The notes under the pieces are model-generated. The model did not search any database. It saw nothing but the letters and a program-made list of their open reading frames with translations, and was not told the DNA's origin. Position numbers and translations under genes: made by a program. Positions 12,419 to 61,726 of a stretch of 64,000 nt of DNA are shown piece by piece. How positions within the stretch are numbered: position 1 is the first letter of the stretch; each line of letters opens with the position of its first letter. Source of the DNA: Enterobacteria phage vB_EcoM_IME339; the sequence record MH051915; one strand, 5' to 3'.

Positions 12419-12964
12419 ATGAGAAAAGCACTACTCGCTGGTCTATTGGCCATTTCTATGATGGCACATAGCTCCGAGCATACTTTCAGTAATGTCCAAC
12501 TCGATAACATGCGTTACGCGTATCAATTCGGGGAACAATTTTCTAAGGATGGAAAATATAAAACACACAAAAATATCCACAAGAGCGGATTAGGCCATAT
12601 AATGGCTGCTATTTTATGGCAAGAAAGCTCTGCCGGAGTTAATTTAAAATCTAAACCAAAGCATCACGCTTATGGAATGTTCCAAAATTATTTGCCTACT
12701 ATGCGAGCGAGAGTTAAGGAACTTGGTTATAATATGACCGATGCTGAAATAAAAAGAATGTTGAATAAACGGTCCAATTCAGCTTCCTGGGCGTACATTG
12801 AACTTTCTTATTGGTTAAATATACATAAGGGCGATATAAGAAAGGCAATATCCTCTTATAATTCGGGATGGAATGTTAAAGCAGGTTCTAAATATGCTTC
12901 TGAAGTCCTAGAAAAGGCTAATTACCTTAAAAATAATAAACTTTTGGAAATAGTAAATGACTAA
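12419..12964 (+). CDS. secreted protein with lytic-transglycosylase (SLT)-like motifs
   Basis: N-terminal signal peptide MRKALLAGLLAISMMAHS; motifs WQESSAG...YGMFQN resemble SLT-domain E-S ... GLMQ. Confidence 0.6.
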   Translation: MRKALLAGLLAISMMAHSSEHTFSNVQLDNMRYAYQFGEQFSKDGKYKTHKNIHKSGLGHIMAAILWQESSAGVNLKSKPKHHAYGMFQNYLPTMRARVKELGYNMTDAEIKRMLNKRSNSASWAYIELSYWLNIHKGDIRKAISSYNSGWNVKAGSKYASEVLEKANYLKNNKLLEIVND

Positions 12965-13304
12965 AATTTTGGTTTTATGTATAGGATTAATTTCATTTTC
13001 TGCTTCTGCGTTAGCAAATACATCATATACTGAAATTAGAGAGTATGTAAATCGCACTGCGGCAGATTATTGTGGGAAAAATAAAGCATGCCAAGCTGAA
13101 TTTGCGCAGAAATTAATATATGCATATAAAGACGGAGAAAGAGATAAATCAAGCAGATACAAAAACGATACATTATTAAAACGATATGCTAAAAAGTGGA
13201 ATACCTTAGAATGTTCAGTTGCGGAGGAGAAAGATAAAGCCGCTTGTCATTCAATGGTTGACCGTTTGGTAGATTCTTATAATCGAGGATTGAGTACTAG
13301 ATGA
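12957..13304 (+). CDS. small secreted protein at the T4 vs position
   Basis: 115 aa with signal peptide MTKILVLCIGLISFSASALA; Cys-containing; identity with T4 Vs not verified. Confidence 0.5.
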   Translation: MTKILVLCIGLISFSASALANTSYTEIREYVNRTAADYCGKNKACQAEFAQKLIYAYKDGERDKSSRYKNDTLLKRYAKKWNTLECSVAEEKDKAACHSMVDRLVDSYNRGLSTR

Positions 13305-13768
13305 TTGTAAAATATATCAAGGGCGATATTGTCGCCCTTTTCGCTGAAGGTAAAAATATTGCGCATGGATGCAATTGTTTTCATACTATGGGTTCAGGCG
13401 TAGCGGGTCAATTAACCAAAGCTTTCCCTAAAATTTTGGAAGCTGATAAATTACAGACTGAATGGGGTGATGTAACTAAACTTGGTTCTTACTCAGTCTA
13501 TGAAAAATACTTTAGGACTCATAAAGCGTATTGCTTCAACCTTTATACTCAATTTCAACCAGGGCCAAATTTTGAGTATTCCGCTTTAATGAATTGTATG
13601 TTAGAATTAAATGAGTTTGGTGAAAATAAACTGATTAAACCTACAATCTATATGCCTAGGATTGGTGCAGGCATAGGTAAAGGGAACTGGGATATTATTG
13701 AGGGGATTTTAGATACATATTCCTCTAAATTAGAAATTGTGATTGTTGATTGGGAACCATTATTATGA
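13301..13768 (+). CDS. macro-domain protein (putative ADP-ribose binding/hydrolase)
   Basis: KGDIVALFAEGKNIAHGCNCFHTMGSGVAGQL and IYMPRIGAGIGKGNW resemble macro-domain GDI..VNAAN..GGGV and G-I-Y-G motifs. Confidence 0.6.
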   Translation: MIVKYIKGDIVALFAEGKNIAHGCNCFHTMGSGVAGQLTKAFPKILEADKLQTEWGDVTKLGSYSVYEKYFRTHKAYCFNLYTQFQPGPNFEYSALMNCMLELNEFGENKLIKPTIYMPRIGAGIGKGNWDIIEGILDTYSSKLEIVIVDWEPLL

Positions 13769-13977
13769 ATATACATTATCCACATCCATATGACCCAAAG
13801 AATAAGGCAGTAATTATTCGTCAATGGGAACGCATTTGCCGTACTAAATGCCCAATTAATAGTCCACATGACGTAGATAAAGACTACATTGGAACATTCG
13901 TTGAATATACCTTTATTGATAAGAAAGGTCGTAAACAGCATGTAGAAGAATACTGCTTAAAGGTTACATGGTTATGA
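13765..13977 (+). CDS. hypothetical protein
   Basis: ORF track 13750; ATG 13765 overlapping upstream stop. Confidence 0.45.
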   Translation: MNIHYPHPYDPKNKAVIIRQWERICRTKCPINSPHDVDKDYIGTFVEYTFIDKKGRKQHVEEYCLKVTWL

Positions 13978-14180
13978 GCCAAACTAGTATTCTTAAAAAT
14001 GCCCATTGTGAAAAGTGTAAATGGCCAGTTGTTTTTGCTTTATGCAACGATGAAATGGCTTGTGATTTCGATTATTGGTGCTATTGTTCTAATAAAGGAT
14101 GCATCAATCATAAAGGTGAAGGATTTTATTCGGGATTTTATCCTTATCCAGATTTCGTTAAAGAAGGTAAACCGAAATGA
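13968..14180 (+). CDS. small Cys-rich (probable zinc-binding) protein
   Basis: 70 aa with CEKC...C...C..C..C pattern. Confidence 0.45.
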   Translation: MVMSQTSILKNAHCEKCKWPVVFALCNDEMACDFDYWCYCSNKGCINHKGEGFYSGFYPYPDFVKEGKPK

Positions 14181-14350
14181 ATAGTTCTGAGTTACAGTAT
14201 GAAGTGTTACGTGAGCTTGATAATTTAATTGAACTCGCTGTCAATAAAGGTTTTGCCATTGGAATCGGTCAAAAAGATACTGGTCATTTAACTATGGAAA
14301 TATTTAAGCAAAAGCGAATTATTTTAAAACTCCTGGAAATTAATATATGA
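14177..14350 (+). CDS. small hypothetical protein
   Basis: 57 aa ORF not in track; ATGA overlaps on both sides. Confidence 0.4.
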   Translation: MNSSELQYEVLRELDNLIELAVNKGFAIGIGQKDTGHLTMEIFKQKRIILKLLEINI

Positions 14351-14532
14351 GTCTGAGTAAAGAACAAAAAGATAAATTGTTTGAGCTTATCCATGAACTT
14401 CTAGATGAGCATACAGAAGCAAACACCTTTTATGATGAATACGGCCCGCTATCTCCCGAACAGCAAGAAGAATTTGCTGATCGGTTTGATAAGAAAGAAA
14501 ACGAATTAATAGCTTATGTGAATACGCTTTAA
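14347..14532 (+). CDS. small acidic hypothetical protein
   Basis: 61 aa ORF. Confidence 0.45.
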   Translation: MSLSKEQKDKLFELIHELLDEHTEANTFYDEYGPLSPEQQEEFADRFDKKENELIAYVNTL

Positions 14533-14541
14533 GAAGGTGAT

Positions 14542-15123
14542 ATGGCGAGTTTAATTTTTACTTATGCAGCAATGAATGCTGGAAAATCTGCTTCTCTTTT
14601 GACTGCTGCGCATAATTATAAAGAGCGCGGAATGAGTGTATTAGTTCTTAAGCCTGCTATTGATACTCGCGATTCTGTCTGTGAAGTCGTTTCTCGCATT
14701 GGAATTAAGCAGGAAGCAAATATTATTACAGATGATATGGATATTTTCGAGTTCTATAAATGGGCTGAAGCACAAAAAGATATTCATTGCGTATTTGTAG
14801 ATGAAGCCCAGTTTTTAAAAACTGAACAGGTGCATCAATTGAGCCGAATTGTTGATACATATAATGTTCCTGTTATGGCCTATGGTCTAAGGACTGATTT
14901 CGCCGGAAAATTATTTGAAGGTTCTAAAGAACTTTTGGCGATTGCAGATAAACTTATTGAACTAAAGGCAGTTTGTCATTGTGGTAAAAAAGCTATTATG
15001 ACAGCTCGATTAATGGAAGATGGAACACCCGTTAAAGAAGGTAATCAAATCTGTATTGGTGATGAAATTTATGTTTCTTTGTGTAGAAAACATTGGAATG
15101 AATTAACTAAAAAGCTCGGTTAG
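14542..15123 (+). CDS. tk: thymidine kinase
   Basis: 193 aa; P-loop AAMNAGKSASLL; C-terminal zinc-site cysteines; matches remembered T4 Tk. Confidence 0.9.
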   Translation: MASLIFTYAAMNAGKSASLLTAAHNYKERGMSVLVLKPAIDTRDSVCEVVSRIGIKQEANIITDDMDIFEFYKWAEAQKDIHCVFVDEAQFLKTEQVHQLSRIVDTYNVPVMAYGLRTDFAGKLFEGSKELLAIADKLIELKAVCHCGKKAIMTARLMEDGTPVKEGNQICIGDEIYVSLCRKHWNELTKKLG

Positions 15124-52812: not shown

Positions 52813-53169
52813 ATGTATAGTTCTGAATTTTCATATTTAAAAATGGAAAAAATTTCATACGATTTTATAGATGAAAAGGTTTATTACAGTTTCCATGAAC
52901 CATGTTTTAATAGTGAGGTCGGGTTTATTGTAGTAAAAGACAATTTCATTTTAAAAATATATTCGGCATTAAAGGATTTTCACTACGAAAATATTAACCT
53001 AAAATTTGACAAAGAAAACGTTCGTAATTGCGCAGTAACAATTACAGGAAATAAAGGTACATGCGTTATGCTATCTGATGAAATTAATGATTTGTTAAAT
53101 GATGCCGAAAAGGTTGCTATTCCATCGATTGATGACCAAATTTTTAATGCTTTTATGAATAGAGGTTAA
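52813..53169 (+). CDS. hypothetical protein (61.2 position)
   Basis: 118 aa ORF. Confidence 0.5.
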   Translation: MYSSEFSYLKMEKISYDFIDEKVYYSFHEPCFNSEVGFIVVKDNFILKIYSALKDFHYENINLKFDKENVRNCAVTITGNKGTCVMLSDEINDLLNDAEKVAIPSIDDQIFNAFMNRG

Positions 53170-54574: not shown

Positions 54575-54600
54575 ATTGCTTTATATATTTATTGTATAAT
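54575..54600 (+). promoter_or_regulatory. T4 middle promoter (MotA box + -10) for gene 56
   Basis: atTGCTTTAtatatttattgTATAAT. Confidence 0.55.
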
Positions 54601-54634
54601 TAATCTACTAATCCATGAATTGAAAGGAAAAATA

Positions 54635-55153
54635 ATGGCATACTTTAATGAATGCGCTCATTTGATCGAAGGTGTTGATAAAGCAAATCGTGCATATGCT
54701 GAGAATATTATGCACAATATTGACCCGCTGCAGGTTATGCTTGATATGCAGCGGCATTTACAAATTCGTTTGGCTAACGATAAACCAGAAACAAATCGTC
54801 ATCCCGATTCACTTGAAACTGCGGGAGAAGTTCTTGCTTGGCTGCGAAACCAAGACGATTATATCGCAGACGAAACTCGCGAGCTATATACTTCTCTTGG
54901 TGGTATGAGCAATGGCGAAAAAGAAGCTTCTGCTGTATGGAAACCTTGGAAGAAACGTTATTCTGAAATGCAATCCAAGAAAATTCAAGATTTATCTCCT
55001 GAAGATCAACTTGAAATTAAATTTGAATTGATTGATCAATTTCACTTTTTCATGAATAAATTCATTGCTCTTGGAATGTCAGCTGAAGAAATCTTTAAAC
55101 TTTATTATTTGAAAAATGCTGAAAACTTCGCTCGTCAAGATCGAGGTTATTAA
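54635..55153 (+). CDS. 56: dCTPase/dUTPase gp56 (MazG-like)
   Basis: 172 aa from ATG 54635: MAYFNECAHLIEGVDKANRAYAENIMH...; ORF track start 54542 runs through promoter. Confidence 0.85.
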   Translation: MAYFNECAHLIEGVDKANRAYAENIMHNIDPLQVMLDMQRHLQIRLANDKPETNRHPDSLETAGEVLAWLRNQDDYIADETRELYTSLGGMSNGEKEASAVWKPWKKRYSEMQSKKIQDLSPEDQLEIKFELIDQFHFFMNKFIALGMSAEEIFKLYYLKNAENFARQDRGY

Positions 55154-55353
55154 TGGCTCGTTTAAATAAACGCCAGCTTAAGAAAGCCCACAAGAAACGT
55201 ATTGACCAGCTATTTAAAAATTATGACAAAGAGCTCGTGTGTGAGCTCTTATCTAATCAGCTTCGTGCGGTTGATTGGGTTGTAGAAGAAGGTCCTGATG
55301 AAATTTTTGTCAGCGAAGAAGCCTTAAAATTAATTATAGAGCATTCAAAATGA
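55153..55353 (+). CDS. basic hypothetical protein
   Basis: 66 aa ORF, TAATG junction with 56. Confidence 0.5.
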   Translation: MARLNKRQLKKAHKKRIDQLFKNYDKELVCELLSNQLRAVDWVVEEGPDEIFVSEEALKLIIEHSK

Positions 55354-55523
55354 AAATATCCAAAGAAGAATTTATTAGACGACAAAAAGCTTTAATTAAT
55401 TTACACGAGTGGTATGCTTACCAGCTTAAAGTAGATAGCTCTAATATAAATGCTGTAATGGCTTTATATAAACAAATTCAAGATGAACACGAATTCCTGG
55501 CACAAGTTTTCATTGAAGACTGA
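55350..55523 (+). CDS. small hypothetical protein
   Basis: 57 aa ORF not in track. Confidence 0.4.
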   Translation: MKISKEEFIRRQKALINLHEWYAYQLKVDSSNINAVMALYKQIQDEHEFLAQVFIED

Positions 55524-55531
55524 TATAAATA
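55524..55531 (+). promoter_or_regulatory. T4 late promoter TATAAATA for soc
   Basis: tgaTATAAATAcacc 30 bp upstream of soc ATG. Confidence 0.6.
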
Positions 55532-55562
55532 CACCTGTAATTAAACAATAAAGGAGTTTATT

Positions 55563-55799
55563 ATGGGTGGTTTCGTTAACATCAAGACCTTTACTCATCC
55601 AGCGGGTGAAGGCAAAGAAGTTAAAGGTATGGAAGTTTCTGTTCCGTTTGAAATTTATTCTAACGAGCATCGTATCGCAGATTCTCATTATCAGATCTTT
55701 CCGTCAGAAAAGGCAGCATATTCTACTGTAGTTTCTGATGCAGCTGATTGGAAAACTAAGAATGCTGCAATGTTTACGCCTACACAAATAGGTGGTTAA
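55563..55799 (+). CDS. soc: small outer capsid protein Soc
   Basis: 78 aa; ...VNIKTF...YQIFPSEKAAYSTV... clearly related to remembered T4 Soc, diverged. Confidence 0.8.
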   Translation: MGGFVNIKTFTHPAGEGKEVKGMEVSVPFEIYSNEHRIADSHYQIFPSEKAAYSTVVSDAADWKTKNAAMFTPTQIGG

Positions 55800-58011: not shown

Positions 58012-58635
58012 ATGATTATTAATCTTGCAGATGTTGAACAGTTATCTATAAAAGCTGAAAGCGTTGATTTTCAATATGATATGTATAAAAAGGTCTGTGA
58101 AAAATTTACTGACTTTGAACAGTCAGTTCTTTGGCAATGTATGGAAGCCAAAAAGAATGAAGCTCTTCATCGGCAGTTGAATAAAATCATTAAAAAGCAT
58201 TTAACTAAATCACCTTATCAGCTATATCGTGGTATATCAAAATCGACAAAAGAACTCATTAAAGATTTACAAGTTGGAGAAGTGTTTTCAACGAATAGAG
58301 TAGATTCATTTACTACTAGTTTGCACACAGCGTGCGGTTTTTCTTATGTTGAGTATTTCACTGAAATAATATTTCGCTTAAAAACTGATAAAGCTTTTAA
58401 TTATTCTGACCATATCAGCGATATTATACTTTCTTCTCCTAATACTGAGTTTAAGTATACATATGAAGATACTGACGGATTAGATTCAGAACGTACTGAT
58501 AACTTAATGATGATTGTGCGTGAACAAGAATGGATGATTCCAATTGGAAAGTATAAAATAACTTCTATTTCAAAAGAAAAATTACACGATTCATTTGGAA
58601 CATTTAAAGTGTATGATATTGAGGTAGTTGAATGA
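58012..58635 (+). CDS. modB: ADP-ribosyltransferase ModB-like
   Basis: 207 aa from ATG 58012; R-S-E ART motifs: LYRG, STN, EQEWMIP. Confidence 0.7.
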   Translation: MIINLADVEQLSIKAESVDFQYDMYKKVCEKFTDFEQSVLWQCMEAKKNEALHRQLNKIIKKHLTKSPYQLYRGISKSTKELIKDLQVGEVFSTNRVDSFTTSLHTACGFSYVEYFTEIIFRLKTDKAFNYSDHISDIILSSPNTEFKYTYEDTDGLDSERTDNLMMIVREQEWMIPIGKYKITSISKEKLHDSFGTFKVYDIEVVE

Positions 58636-59234
58636 AATATTCAGCAATGCAATTAAAAGATTTTAAAATCAAATCAATGGATGCATCGGTGCGTGCTTCT
58701 ATTCGTGAAGAATTACTTTCTGAAGGATTTAATTTATCTGAAATTGAACTTTTAATTCATTGTATTACTAATAAGCCAGACGATCATTCTTGGTTAAATG
58801 AAATAATCAAATCTCGTTTGGTTCCAAACGATAAACCTCTTTGGAGAGGTGTTCCAGTTGAGACTAAGCAGGTGTTAAATCAAGGAATTGATATTATTAC
58901 ATTTGATAAAGTAGTATCAGCTTCATATGATAAAAATATAGCTCTACATTTTGCTTCTGGATTAGAATACAACACGCAAGTTATTTTTGAATTCAAAGCT
59001 CCTATGGTATTTAATTTCCAGGAGTATGCTATAAAAGCTCTACGTTGTAAAGAATATAGTCCGAGTTTTAAGTTTCCAGATAGCCATCGTTATCGTAATA
59101 TGGAATTAGTTTCAGATGAACAAGAAGTAATGATACCAGCTGGAAGTGTATTTAGAATTGCGGATAGATACGAGTATAAAAAGCATTCAACATACACTAT
59201 CTATACTCTTGACTTTGAAGGATTTAATCTATAA
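58632..59234 (+). CDS. modA: ADP-ribosyltransferase ModA-like
   Basis: 200 aa paralog of upstream gene; motifs LWRG, SAS, EQEVMIP. Confidence 0.7.
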   Translation: MKYSAMQLKDFKIKSMDASVRASIREELLSEGFNLSEIELLIHCITNKPDDHSWLNEIIKSRLVPNDKPLWRGVPVETKQVLNQGIDIITFDKVVSASYDKNIALHFASGLEYNTQVIFEFKAPMVFNFQEYAIKALRCKEYSPSFKFPDSHRYRNMELVSDEQEVMIPAGSVFRIADRYEYKKHSTYTIYTLDFEGFNL

Positions 59235-60410: not shown

Positions 60411-61726
60411 CATTTGATGATTTGACAGAAGGCCAGAAAAATGCCTTTAACATCGTTATGAGGGCTATCAAAGAAAAGAAACATCATGTAACTATTAATG
60501 GACCTGCCGGTACTGGTAAAACTACTCTTACTAAGTTCATCATTGAAGCTTTAATATCTACGGGCGAAACTGGCATTATTTTAGCAGCTCCTACACATGC
60601 AGCTAAAAAGATTCTTTCAAAACTGTCAGGGAAAGAAGCGAGTACTATTCATAGTATTCTTAAAATTAACCCCGTAACATACGAAGAAAACGTTCTTTTT
60701 GAACAAAAAGAAGTACCGGATTTAGCCAAATGTAGAGTATTAATCTGCGACGAAGTGTCAATGTATGATAGAAAGCTATTTAAAATTCTGCTTTCAACTA
60801 TCCCGCCATGGTGTACTATAATTGGAATAGGCGATAATAAGCAAATTAGACCTGTTGACCCAGGGGAAAACACTGCTTATATCAGTCCATTCTTTACACA
60901 TAAAGATTTTTATCAGTGTGAACTCACTGAAGTTAAACGCAGTAATGCTCCTATTATTGATGTAGCTACTGATGTTCGCAACGGTAAGTGGATTTATGAT
61001 AAAGTTGTTGACGGACATGGAGTACGTGGATTTACTGGTGATACCGCTTTACGCGATTTTATGGTAAATTATTTTTCAATCGTTAAATCACTAGATGATT
61101 TGTTTGAAAATCGCGTAATGGCATTTACGAATAAATCTGTTGATAAGTTAAATAGCATTATTCGTAAAAAGATTTTTGAAACTGATAAAGATTTTATTGT
61201 CGGTGAAATTATTGTAATGCAGGAACCGTTAATTAAAACATATAAAATTGATGGAAAGCCTGTGTCAGAAATTATTTTTAATAACGGACAATTAGTTCGT
61301 ATTATAGAAGCAGAATATACATCAACATTTGTTAAAGCTCGTGGCGTTCCTGGAGAATATCTAATTCGTCATTGGGATTTAACAGTAGAAACTTACGGTG
61401 ATGATGAATATTATCGTGAAAAGATTAAAATAATTTCATCTGATGAAGAGCTGTATAAGTTTAACTTATTTTTAGGTAAAACTGCAGAAACTTACAAAAA
61501 TTGGAATAAAGGTGGAAAAGCTCCATGGAGCGATTTTTGGGATGCTAAATCACAGTTTAGTAAAGTGAAAGCACTTCCTGCATCAACATTCCATAAAGCT
61601 CAGGGCATGTCTGTAGACCGTGCTTTTATCTATACGCCTTGTATCCATTATGCAGATGCTGAACTAGCTCAGCAGCTTCTTTATGTTGGTGTAACACGTG
61701 GTCGTTATGATGTATTTTATGTATGA
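60407..61726 (+). CDS. dda: DNA helicase Dda (SF1B)
   Basis: 439 aa; Walker A GPAGTGKTT, Walker B LICDEVSM. Confidence 0.93.
   Translation: MTFDDLTEGQKNAFNIVMRAIKEKKHHVTINGPAGTGKTTLTKFIIEALISTGETGIILAAPTHAAKKILSKLSGKEASTIHSILKINPVTYEENVLFEQKEVPDLAKCRVLICDEVSMYDRKLFKILLSTIPPWCTIIGIGDNKQIRPVDPGENTAYISPFFTHKDFYQCELTEVKRSNAPIIDVATDVRNGKWIYDKVVDGHGVRGFTGDTALRDFMVNYFSIVKSLDDLFENRVMAFTNKSVDKLNSIIRKKIFETDKDFIVGEIIVMQEPLIKTYKIDGKPVSEIIFNNGQLVRIIEAEYTSTFVKARGVPGEYLIRHWDLTVETYGDDEYYREKIKIISSDEELYKFNLFLGKTAETYKNWNKGGKAPWSDFWDAKSQFSKVKALPASTFHKAQGMSVDRAFIYTPCIHYADAELAQQLLYVGVTRGRYDVFYV

Follow-up and report, generated by a model that had tools for sequence, protein, structure and literature searches.

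Which function is served by the 155-residue protein encoded between vs and tk.3 of Enterobacteria phage vB_EcoM_IME339, and, if this protein is a macro domain as the preliminary description had proposed, on which ADP-ribose mark does it act? In this study, a stretch of 64,000 nucleotides from this phage (sequence record MH051915; the whole stretch is called the window) was analyzed. The window as a whole is a T4-type genome oriented along early transcription. The protein is identical to T4 Tk.4 (NP_049723) at 155 of 155 residues (100%), and the gene lies between vs and tk.3 as it does in T4. The open reading frame is thus the tk.4 (adfM) orthologue of a T4-type phage, and its features are collected in Table 1. 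At the DNA level, matches to tk.4 were found in 646 phage records, 105 of them at a level of at least 99%, and the names given on the matching records include "macro domain protein", "Poa1p-like family protein" and "phosphatase".

Table 1. Positions in the window of tk.4, its neighbours and the conserved segments of its product
Feature	Position	Strand	Remark
tk.4 (adfM) CDS, single macro domain	13301..13768	+	ATG-to-TGA ORF, 155 aa
ATGA overlap, vs stop and tk.4 start	13301..13304	+	Direct sequence reading
ATGA overlap, tk.4 stop and tk.3 start	13765..13768	+	Sequence; tk.3 lies at 13765-13977
vs	12957-13304		Upstream neighbour, 4-base overlap with tk.4
tk	14542-15123		Downstream of tk.3
Residues 22-36, HGCNCFHTMGSGVAG	13364..13408	+	H-x-C-N motif and G-x-G-x-A loop after strand 2
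Residues 80-84, NLYTQ	13538..13552	+	Strand leading to the predicted catalytic position
Residues 119-130, PRIGAGIGKGNW	13655..13690	+	Second phosphate-binding loop, P-x-I-G-x-G...W

The overlap of vs with tk.4 makes translational coupling of the two genes likely. The overlap of tk.4 with tk.3 is of the same four-base length in the T4 record, where tk.3 occupies 60713-60925 and tk.4 occupies 60922-61389 (RefSeq). A search for a promoter dedicated to tk.4 returned promoter-like sites at chance level (14 found, 14.9 expected), and in a search for a dedicated terminator the sole terminator-like site at the gene lay on the strand opposite to tk.4. Codons 7-13 of tk.4 contain a perfect hairpin of 9 bp (AAGGGCGAC ... 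GTCGCCCTT) at 13319-13339, which was called terminator-like on the minus strand; the predicted folding of the surrounding 76 nt was no more stable than that of shuffled sequence (z = -1.2), and the hairpin was therefore not counted as a feature. In the HIDEN-SEQ preprint (bioRxiv 10.1101/2025.11.20.689424), the upstream gene, vs, is reported as the T4 gene with the strongest depletion in minimal medium.

The phage is closely related to T4 but distinct from it, as is seen from the interval between tk.3 and tk, for which no alignment to T4 was obtained. This interval (13968-14532) carries three small ORFs, a Cys-rich one of 70 aa and two others of 57 aa and 61 aa; blastn gave no alignment of it to the tk.2/tk.1 region of T4, and both of its flanks are 95-97% identical to T4, which suggests that genes were replaced locally in this variable region. 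Further differences were observed elsewhere in the window. T4 gene 61.2 (208 aa) belongs to the AdfA anti-DarT family, and at its position (52813-53169) the window has an ORF of 118 aa in a region that tblastn matched at only 31% (144 residues), flanked by DNA that is 95-96% identical to T4; the AdfA allele of IME339 may be very different or truncated. At 54595-55793, the soc/segF interval of T4 has no blastn counterpart and the adjacent gene 56 shares only about 75% DNA identity with T4, which suggests that the phage lacks the homing endonuclease SegF and that its gene 56 has diverged.

The macro domain of tk.4 and its role against DarTG2 are already known. A match of the tk.4 orthologues to the macro domain, there termed A1pp, was described by Nolan and colleagues in 2006 (PMC1524935), and RefSeq describes NP_049723 as "phosphatase; contains A1pp phosphatase motif". 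In 2025, T4 lacking adfA and adfN was found to be still resistant to DarTG2, and a further factor was predicted (Nat Commun, PMC11825919). In November 2025, the HIDEN-SEQ study passed a transposon library of T4 through a host carrying DarTG2 and reported tk.4 as the one gene with a significant effect, and a clean tk.4 knockout made T4 sensitive to DarTG2; the authors also described a structural match of Tk.4 to the DarG protein of Mycobacterium tuberculosis, renamed the gene adfM (anti-DarT factor Macrodomain) and inferred, without an assay, that Tk.4 enzymatically removes ADP-ribose from DNA (bioRxiv 10.1101/2025.11.20.689424). The published evidence is genetic, and no biochemical assay of Tk.4 itself was found in the searchable literature. 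Since both the domain and the defence role have been published, the present analysis adds no new biology; its small addition is a comparison of the catalytic centre, in which Gln84 of Tk.4 stands in place of a lysine.

The assignment to the macro domain family was borne out by sequence, profile and predicted fold. The three motifs on which the preliminary description had based it are all present in the product, namely KGDIV at residues 7-11, NIAHGCNCFHTMGSGVAGQL at residues 19-38 and PRIGAGIGKGNW. The proposed Pfam search gave a match of PF01661 at 27.7 bits (E=2.9e-6; profile positions 2-113 of 118), above the gathering cut-off of 22 bits, and Tk.4 also matched PHROG 335 (E=1.3e-65). A search with the single sequence found the macrodomain structures of BT1257, Poa1p, SCO6735, DarG and TARG1, and a profile built from 45 homologues found the same five at E=2e-17 to 5e-11. 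The absence of a macro-domain hit, together with a predicted fold lacking the macro topology, had been named as the observation that would speak against the assignment. The AlphaFold2 model, computed from the alignment of the 45 homologues, instead predicts with very high confidence (pLDDT 95.2, pTM 0.90) an alpha/beta/alpha arrangement in three layers, in which a mixed sheet of six strands is combined with five helices, in agreement with the canonical macro topology (PMC9411070). Both glycine-rich loops of the cleft are present: MGSGVAG after strand 2, with invariant G33 and A35, and PRIGAG, with invariant P119, I121, G122 and G124. The nearest neighbours in structure and in sequence (TARG1, DarG, SCO6735 and BT1257) all belong to the ALC1/TARG1-like class, and as judged from the sequence Tk.4 is a stand-alone macrodomain of this class.

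Conservation was counted over 119 sequences of the Tk.4 family, in which little or no variation is seen at H22, G23, N25, C26, G33, A35, D49, N80, Y82, Q84, P119, I121, G122 and G124. In the segment of residues 22-36, which would form the pocket for the ribose and diphosphate of ADP-ribose, G33 and A35 are found in 119/119 sequences, G23, N25 and C26 in 118/119 and H22 in 114/119. The N25 column corresponds to N23 of gp104 of phage PhiKZ, whose mutation lowers activity (PMC13309987), and to the asparagine of the DarG, SCO6735 and Poa1p motifs. In the strand NLYTQ, Q84 and Y82 are present in 119/119 sequences and N80 in 118/119. The second phosphate-binding loop, which apart from its invariant residues has W130 in 117/119, aligns with PRIGCGLAGG-W of BT1257 and SCO6735 and with PRIGCGLDRLQW of TARG1.

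In the joint alignment, the Q84 column holds Gln85 of SCO6735 (numbered by counting along chain 5e3b, with the first 20 residues assumed to be an expression tag), the Gln of BT1257, K84 of TARG1 (the sequence used agrees with PDB 2lgr), K80 of the Thermus aquaticus DarG and the Lys of the PhiKZ FPTK motif. By this alignment, Gln84 takes the place of the catalytic Lys of DarG and TARG1. SCO6735 is a thymidine-ADP-ribose DNA hydrolase that removes DarT-made thymidine-ADP-ribose and rescues DarT toxicity, and its Q85A mutant is inactive (PMC9411070). Because Gln84 shares the column of this residue, a Gln-type, water-activated mechanism is most likely in Tk.4, and not the Lys chemistry of DarG. 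The family profile scored Poa1p, DarG, SCO6735 and TARG1 nearly equally (54-56 bits), so that the assignment of Tk.4 to a subclass depends mainly on this glutamine.

From the fold, the class and the residue pattern observed here, together with the published genetics, a mechanism may be outlined that we consider quite likely, in which Tk.4 serves the phage as an eraser resembling an antitoxin without its toxin and hydrolyzes thymidine-linked ADP-ribose on the single-stranded DNA of the phage. During infection, the DarT2 toxin of the host ADP-ribosylates thymidines in single-stranded phage DNA, by which replication is blocked. The ADP-ribose moiety would be bound in the pocket of Tk.4, formed by H22/N25 and the G31-A35 and P119-G124 loops, and hydrolysis of the bond between thymidine and ribose would restore a replicable template. 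Asn25 would have a part in this activity, and Gln84 probably positions the distal ribose and the water, in the manner of SCO6735 and not in the Lys-dependent manner of DarG and TARG1.

The comparison with known systems places Tk.4 beside the Gln-type proteins and at some distance from each of them. SCO6735 of Streptomyces coelicolor (PDB 5e3b) and BT1257 of Bacteroides (PDB 2fg1) are ALC1-like proteins that share the glutamine with Tk.4, although identity is only 21-29% and the invariant Asp49 of the Tk.4 family is a Tyr in both. The mobile loop after the glutamine is about five residues longer in these two proteins, whereas the Tk.4 family shows a gap there. In SCO6735, this loop, which exceeds that of DarG and TARG1 by five residues, has been tied to high activity on DNA (PMC9411070). 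Its absence from Tk.4 counts against the proposed eraser activity, and because of it Tk.4 is better described as a Gln-type relative than as a clear member of the SCO6735/BT1257 subclass. In human TARG1 (OARD1), the dyad K84/D125 stands where Tk.4 has Q84 and G126. The DarG2 macrodomains of T. aquaticus and M. tuberculosis (PDB 5m31 and 5m3i) have the catalytic Lys of FPTK where Tk.4 has Gln; moreover, DarG has a C-terminal DarT-binding domain and a gene beside darT, and Tk.4 has neither, its gene being flanked by vs and tk.3 and not by darT. The DarG equivalog model NF048014 of NCBIfam covered Tk.4 at 30.3 bits, against a curated cut-off of 250 bits, and at model positions 2-146 of 338 only; the PADLOC DarG model matched at positions 2-145 of 329. 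Membership of Tk.4 in the DarG equivalog family was rejected on this score and on the match to the macro half only, and the same restriction to the macro part indicates that the DarT-binding domain is lacking.

Like T4 Tk.4, gp104 of PhiKZ, also named AdfM, is a stand-alone phage macrodomain that counters DarTG2, and it has been shown to strip DarT2-made ADP-ribose from DNA in vitro (Cell Rep 2026, PMC13309987). However, gp104 is a close relative of DarG (E=9e-25 to the M. tuberculosis protein) with the Lys of FPTK, and BLASTP of Tk.4 against it gave a match of only 23 residues at E=0.005, on which direct orthology was rejected. By their sequences, the two proteins are separate and distantly related subgroups under one name. 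The name AdfM was given independently to these two non-orthologues, one Gln-type and one DarG-like and Lys-type, and this double use is likely to cause confusion in annotation.

Of the roles considered in the preliminary description, the countering of DarT is supported by the published genetics, in which tk.4 of the identical T4 protein is needed on DarTG2 hosts; reversal of ModA/ModB marks is unlikely, and an action on Thoeris signals found no support. Other readings of the protection against DarTG2 have to be weighed. It is improbable that the protection comes chiefly from stoichiometric inhibition, in which Tk.4 would bind DarT2 and block it. The inactive mutants SCO6735 (Q85A), DarG (K80A) and TARG1 (K84A) still inhibit DarT in vitro by binding, SCO6735 most strongly (PMC9411070), and for this reason the protection by Tk.4 need not be purely enzymatic. 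Tk.4, however, covers only the macro part of DarG (2-146 of about 330) and lacks the domain that DarG dedicates to DarT binding. Furthermore, the ADP-ribose pocket and Gln84 are invariant in the 119 homologues, which come from phages of many hosts, and such invariance fits conserved chemistry better than adaptation to the surface of one toxin. Somewhat less probable still is that Tk.4 is an enzyme of small molecules, an ADP-ribose-1''-phosphate phosphatase or an O-acetyl-ADP-ribose deacetylase. The database names "phosphatase", "Poa1p-like" and "RNase III inhibitor" point in this direction. Yet the "phosphatase" names go back to the matching of a domain, not to a measured activity (PMC1524935), yeast Poa1p has a Ser opposite the invariant Gln84, and the sole recorded phenotype is specific to DarTG2 (bioRxiv 10.1101/2025.11.20.689424). 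Poa1p is nevertheless a close neighbour whose mutation-probed residues H23 and S30 align with H22 and T29 of Tk.4, and such an activity could exist as a side reaction beside the activity of Tk.4 on DNA.

We regard it as highly improbable that Tk.4 reverses or tunes the marks that Alt, ModA and ModB of the phage place on host proteins, or that it strips ADP-ribose from RNA. The preliminary description had drawn attention to two ModA/ModB-like ADP-ribosyltransferases of the same phage, and modA (58632-59231) and modB (58012-58632) do lie within the window, which speaks for such a role, as does the action of SCO6735 and TARG1 on protein substrates too (PMC9411070). The ADP-ribose marks of Alt, ModA and ModB, however, are linked to arginine, and to our knowledge their removal is the work of ARH/DraG-type enzymes and not of macrodomains, which makes reversal of ModA/ModB marks by Tk.4 unlikely. 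Moreover, T4 with an insertion in tk.4 grew in the reference library on E. coli K-12 without DarTG2, and such insertions were depleted only with DarTG2 (bioRxiv 10.1101/2025.11.20.689424). As for RNA, the mRNA ADP-ribosyltransferase CmdT of CmdTAC defends robustly against T4 despite its tk.4, which argues that Tk.4 does not erase that mark. The hydrolysis of DarT2-made marks on phage DNA is the reading that we prefer.

Tk.4 homologues were found by tblastn in 2,749 of 50,697 phage records, mostly in large myoviruses of enterobacteria, Klebsiella, Pseudomonas, Vibrio, Acinetobacter and Aeromonas, and a Tk.4-type activity is therefore probably common in such phages. A bacterial origin, or a cousin linked to darT, was considered for one homologue (P0072) labelled "Bacilli bacterium MAG" and was rejected, since its contig is that of a T4-like phage; the contig carries genes for Rnl1, a Dda-like helicase, PNKP and a spanin, and neither a bacterial context nor a darT neighbour was found on it. 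In this distant T4-like contig (L004, 41-3739), the homologue lies between the Rnl1 RNA ligase and the Dda-like helicase with a DUF4326 gene upstream, unlike the arrangement at vs-tk.

A broader picture is put forward tentatively, and as one whole. Phages may have drawn on two ALC1-like branches against DarT2, namely the Lys-type, DarG-derived branch of PhiKZ gp104 and the Gln-type branch of the Tk.4 family, in which Tk.4 would be SCO6735-like and water-activated without the long loop. Asp49 may serve as a further residue for catalysis or for contact with the DNA, and Tk.4 might, like SCO6735, erase other linkages, such as Glu/Asp-linked marks on proteins, and so cover more than DarTG2. For the T-even phages, the finding would mean that erasers specific for particular ADP-ribose marks on DNA are stacked in one genome, with AdfN directed against the guanine marks of DarT1 and Tk.4 against the thymine marks of DarT2.
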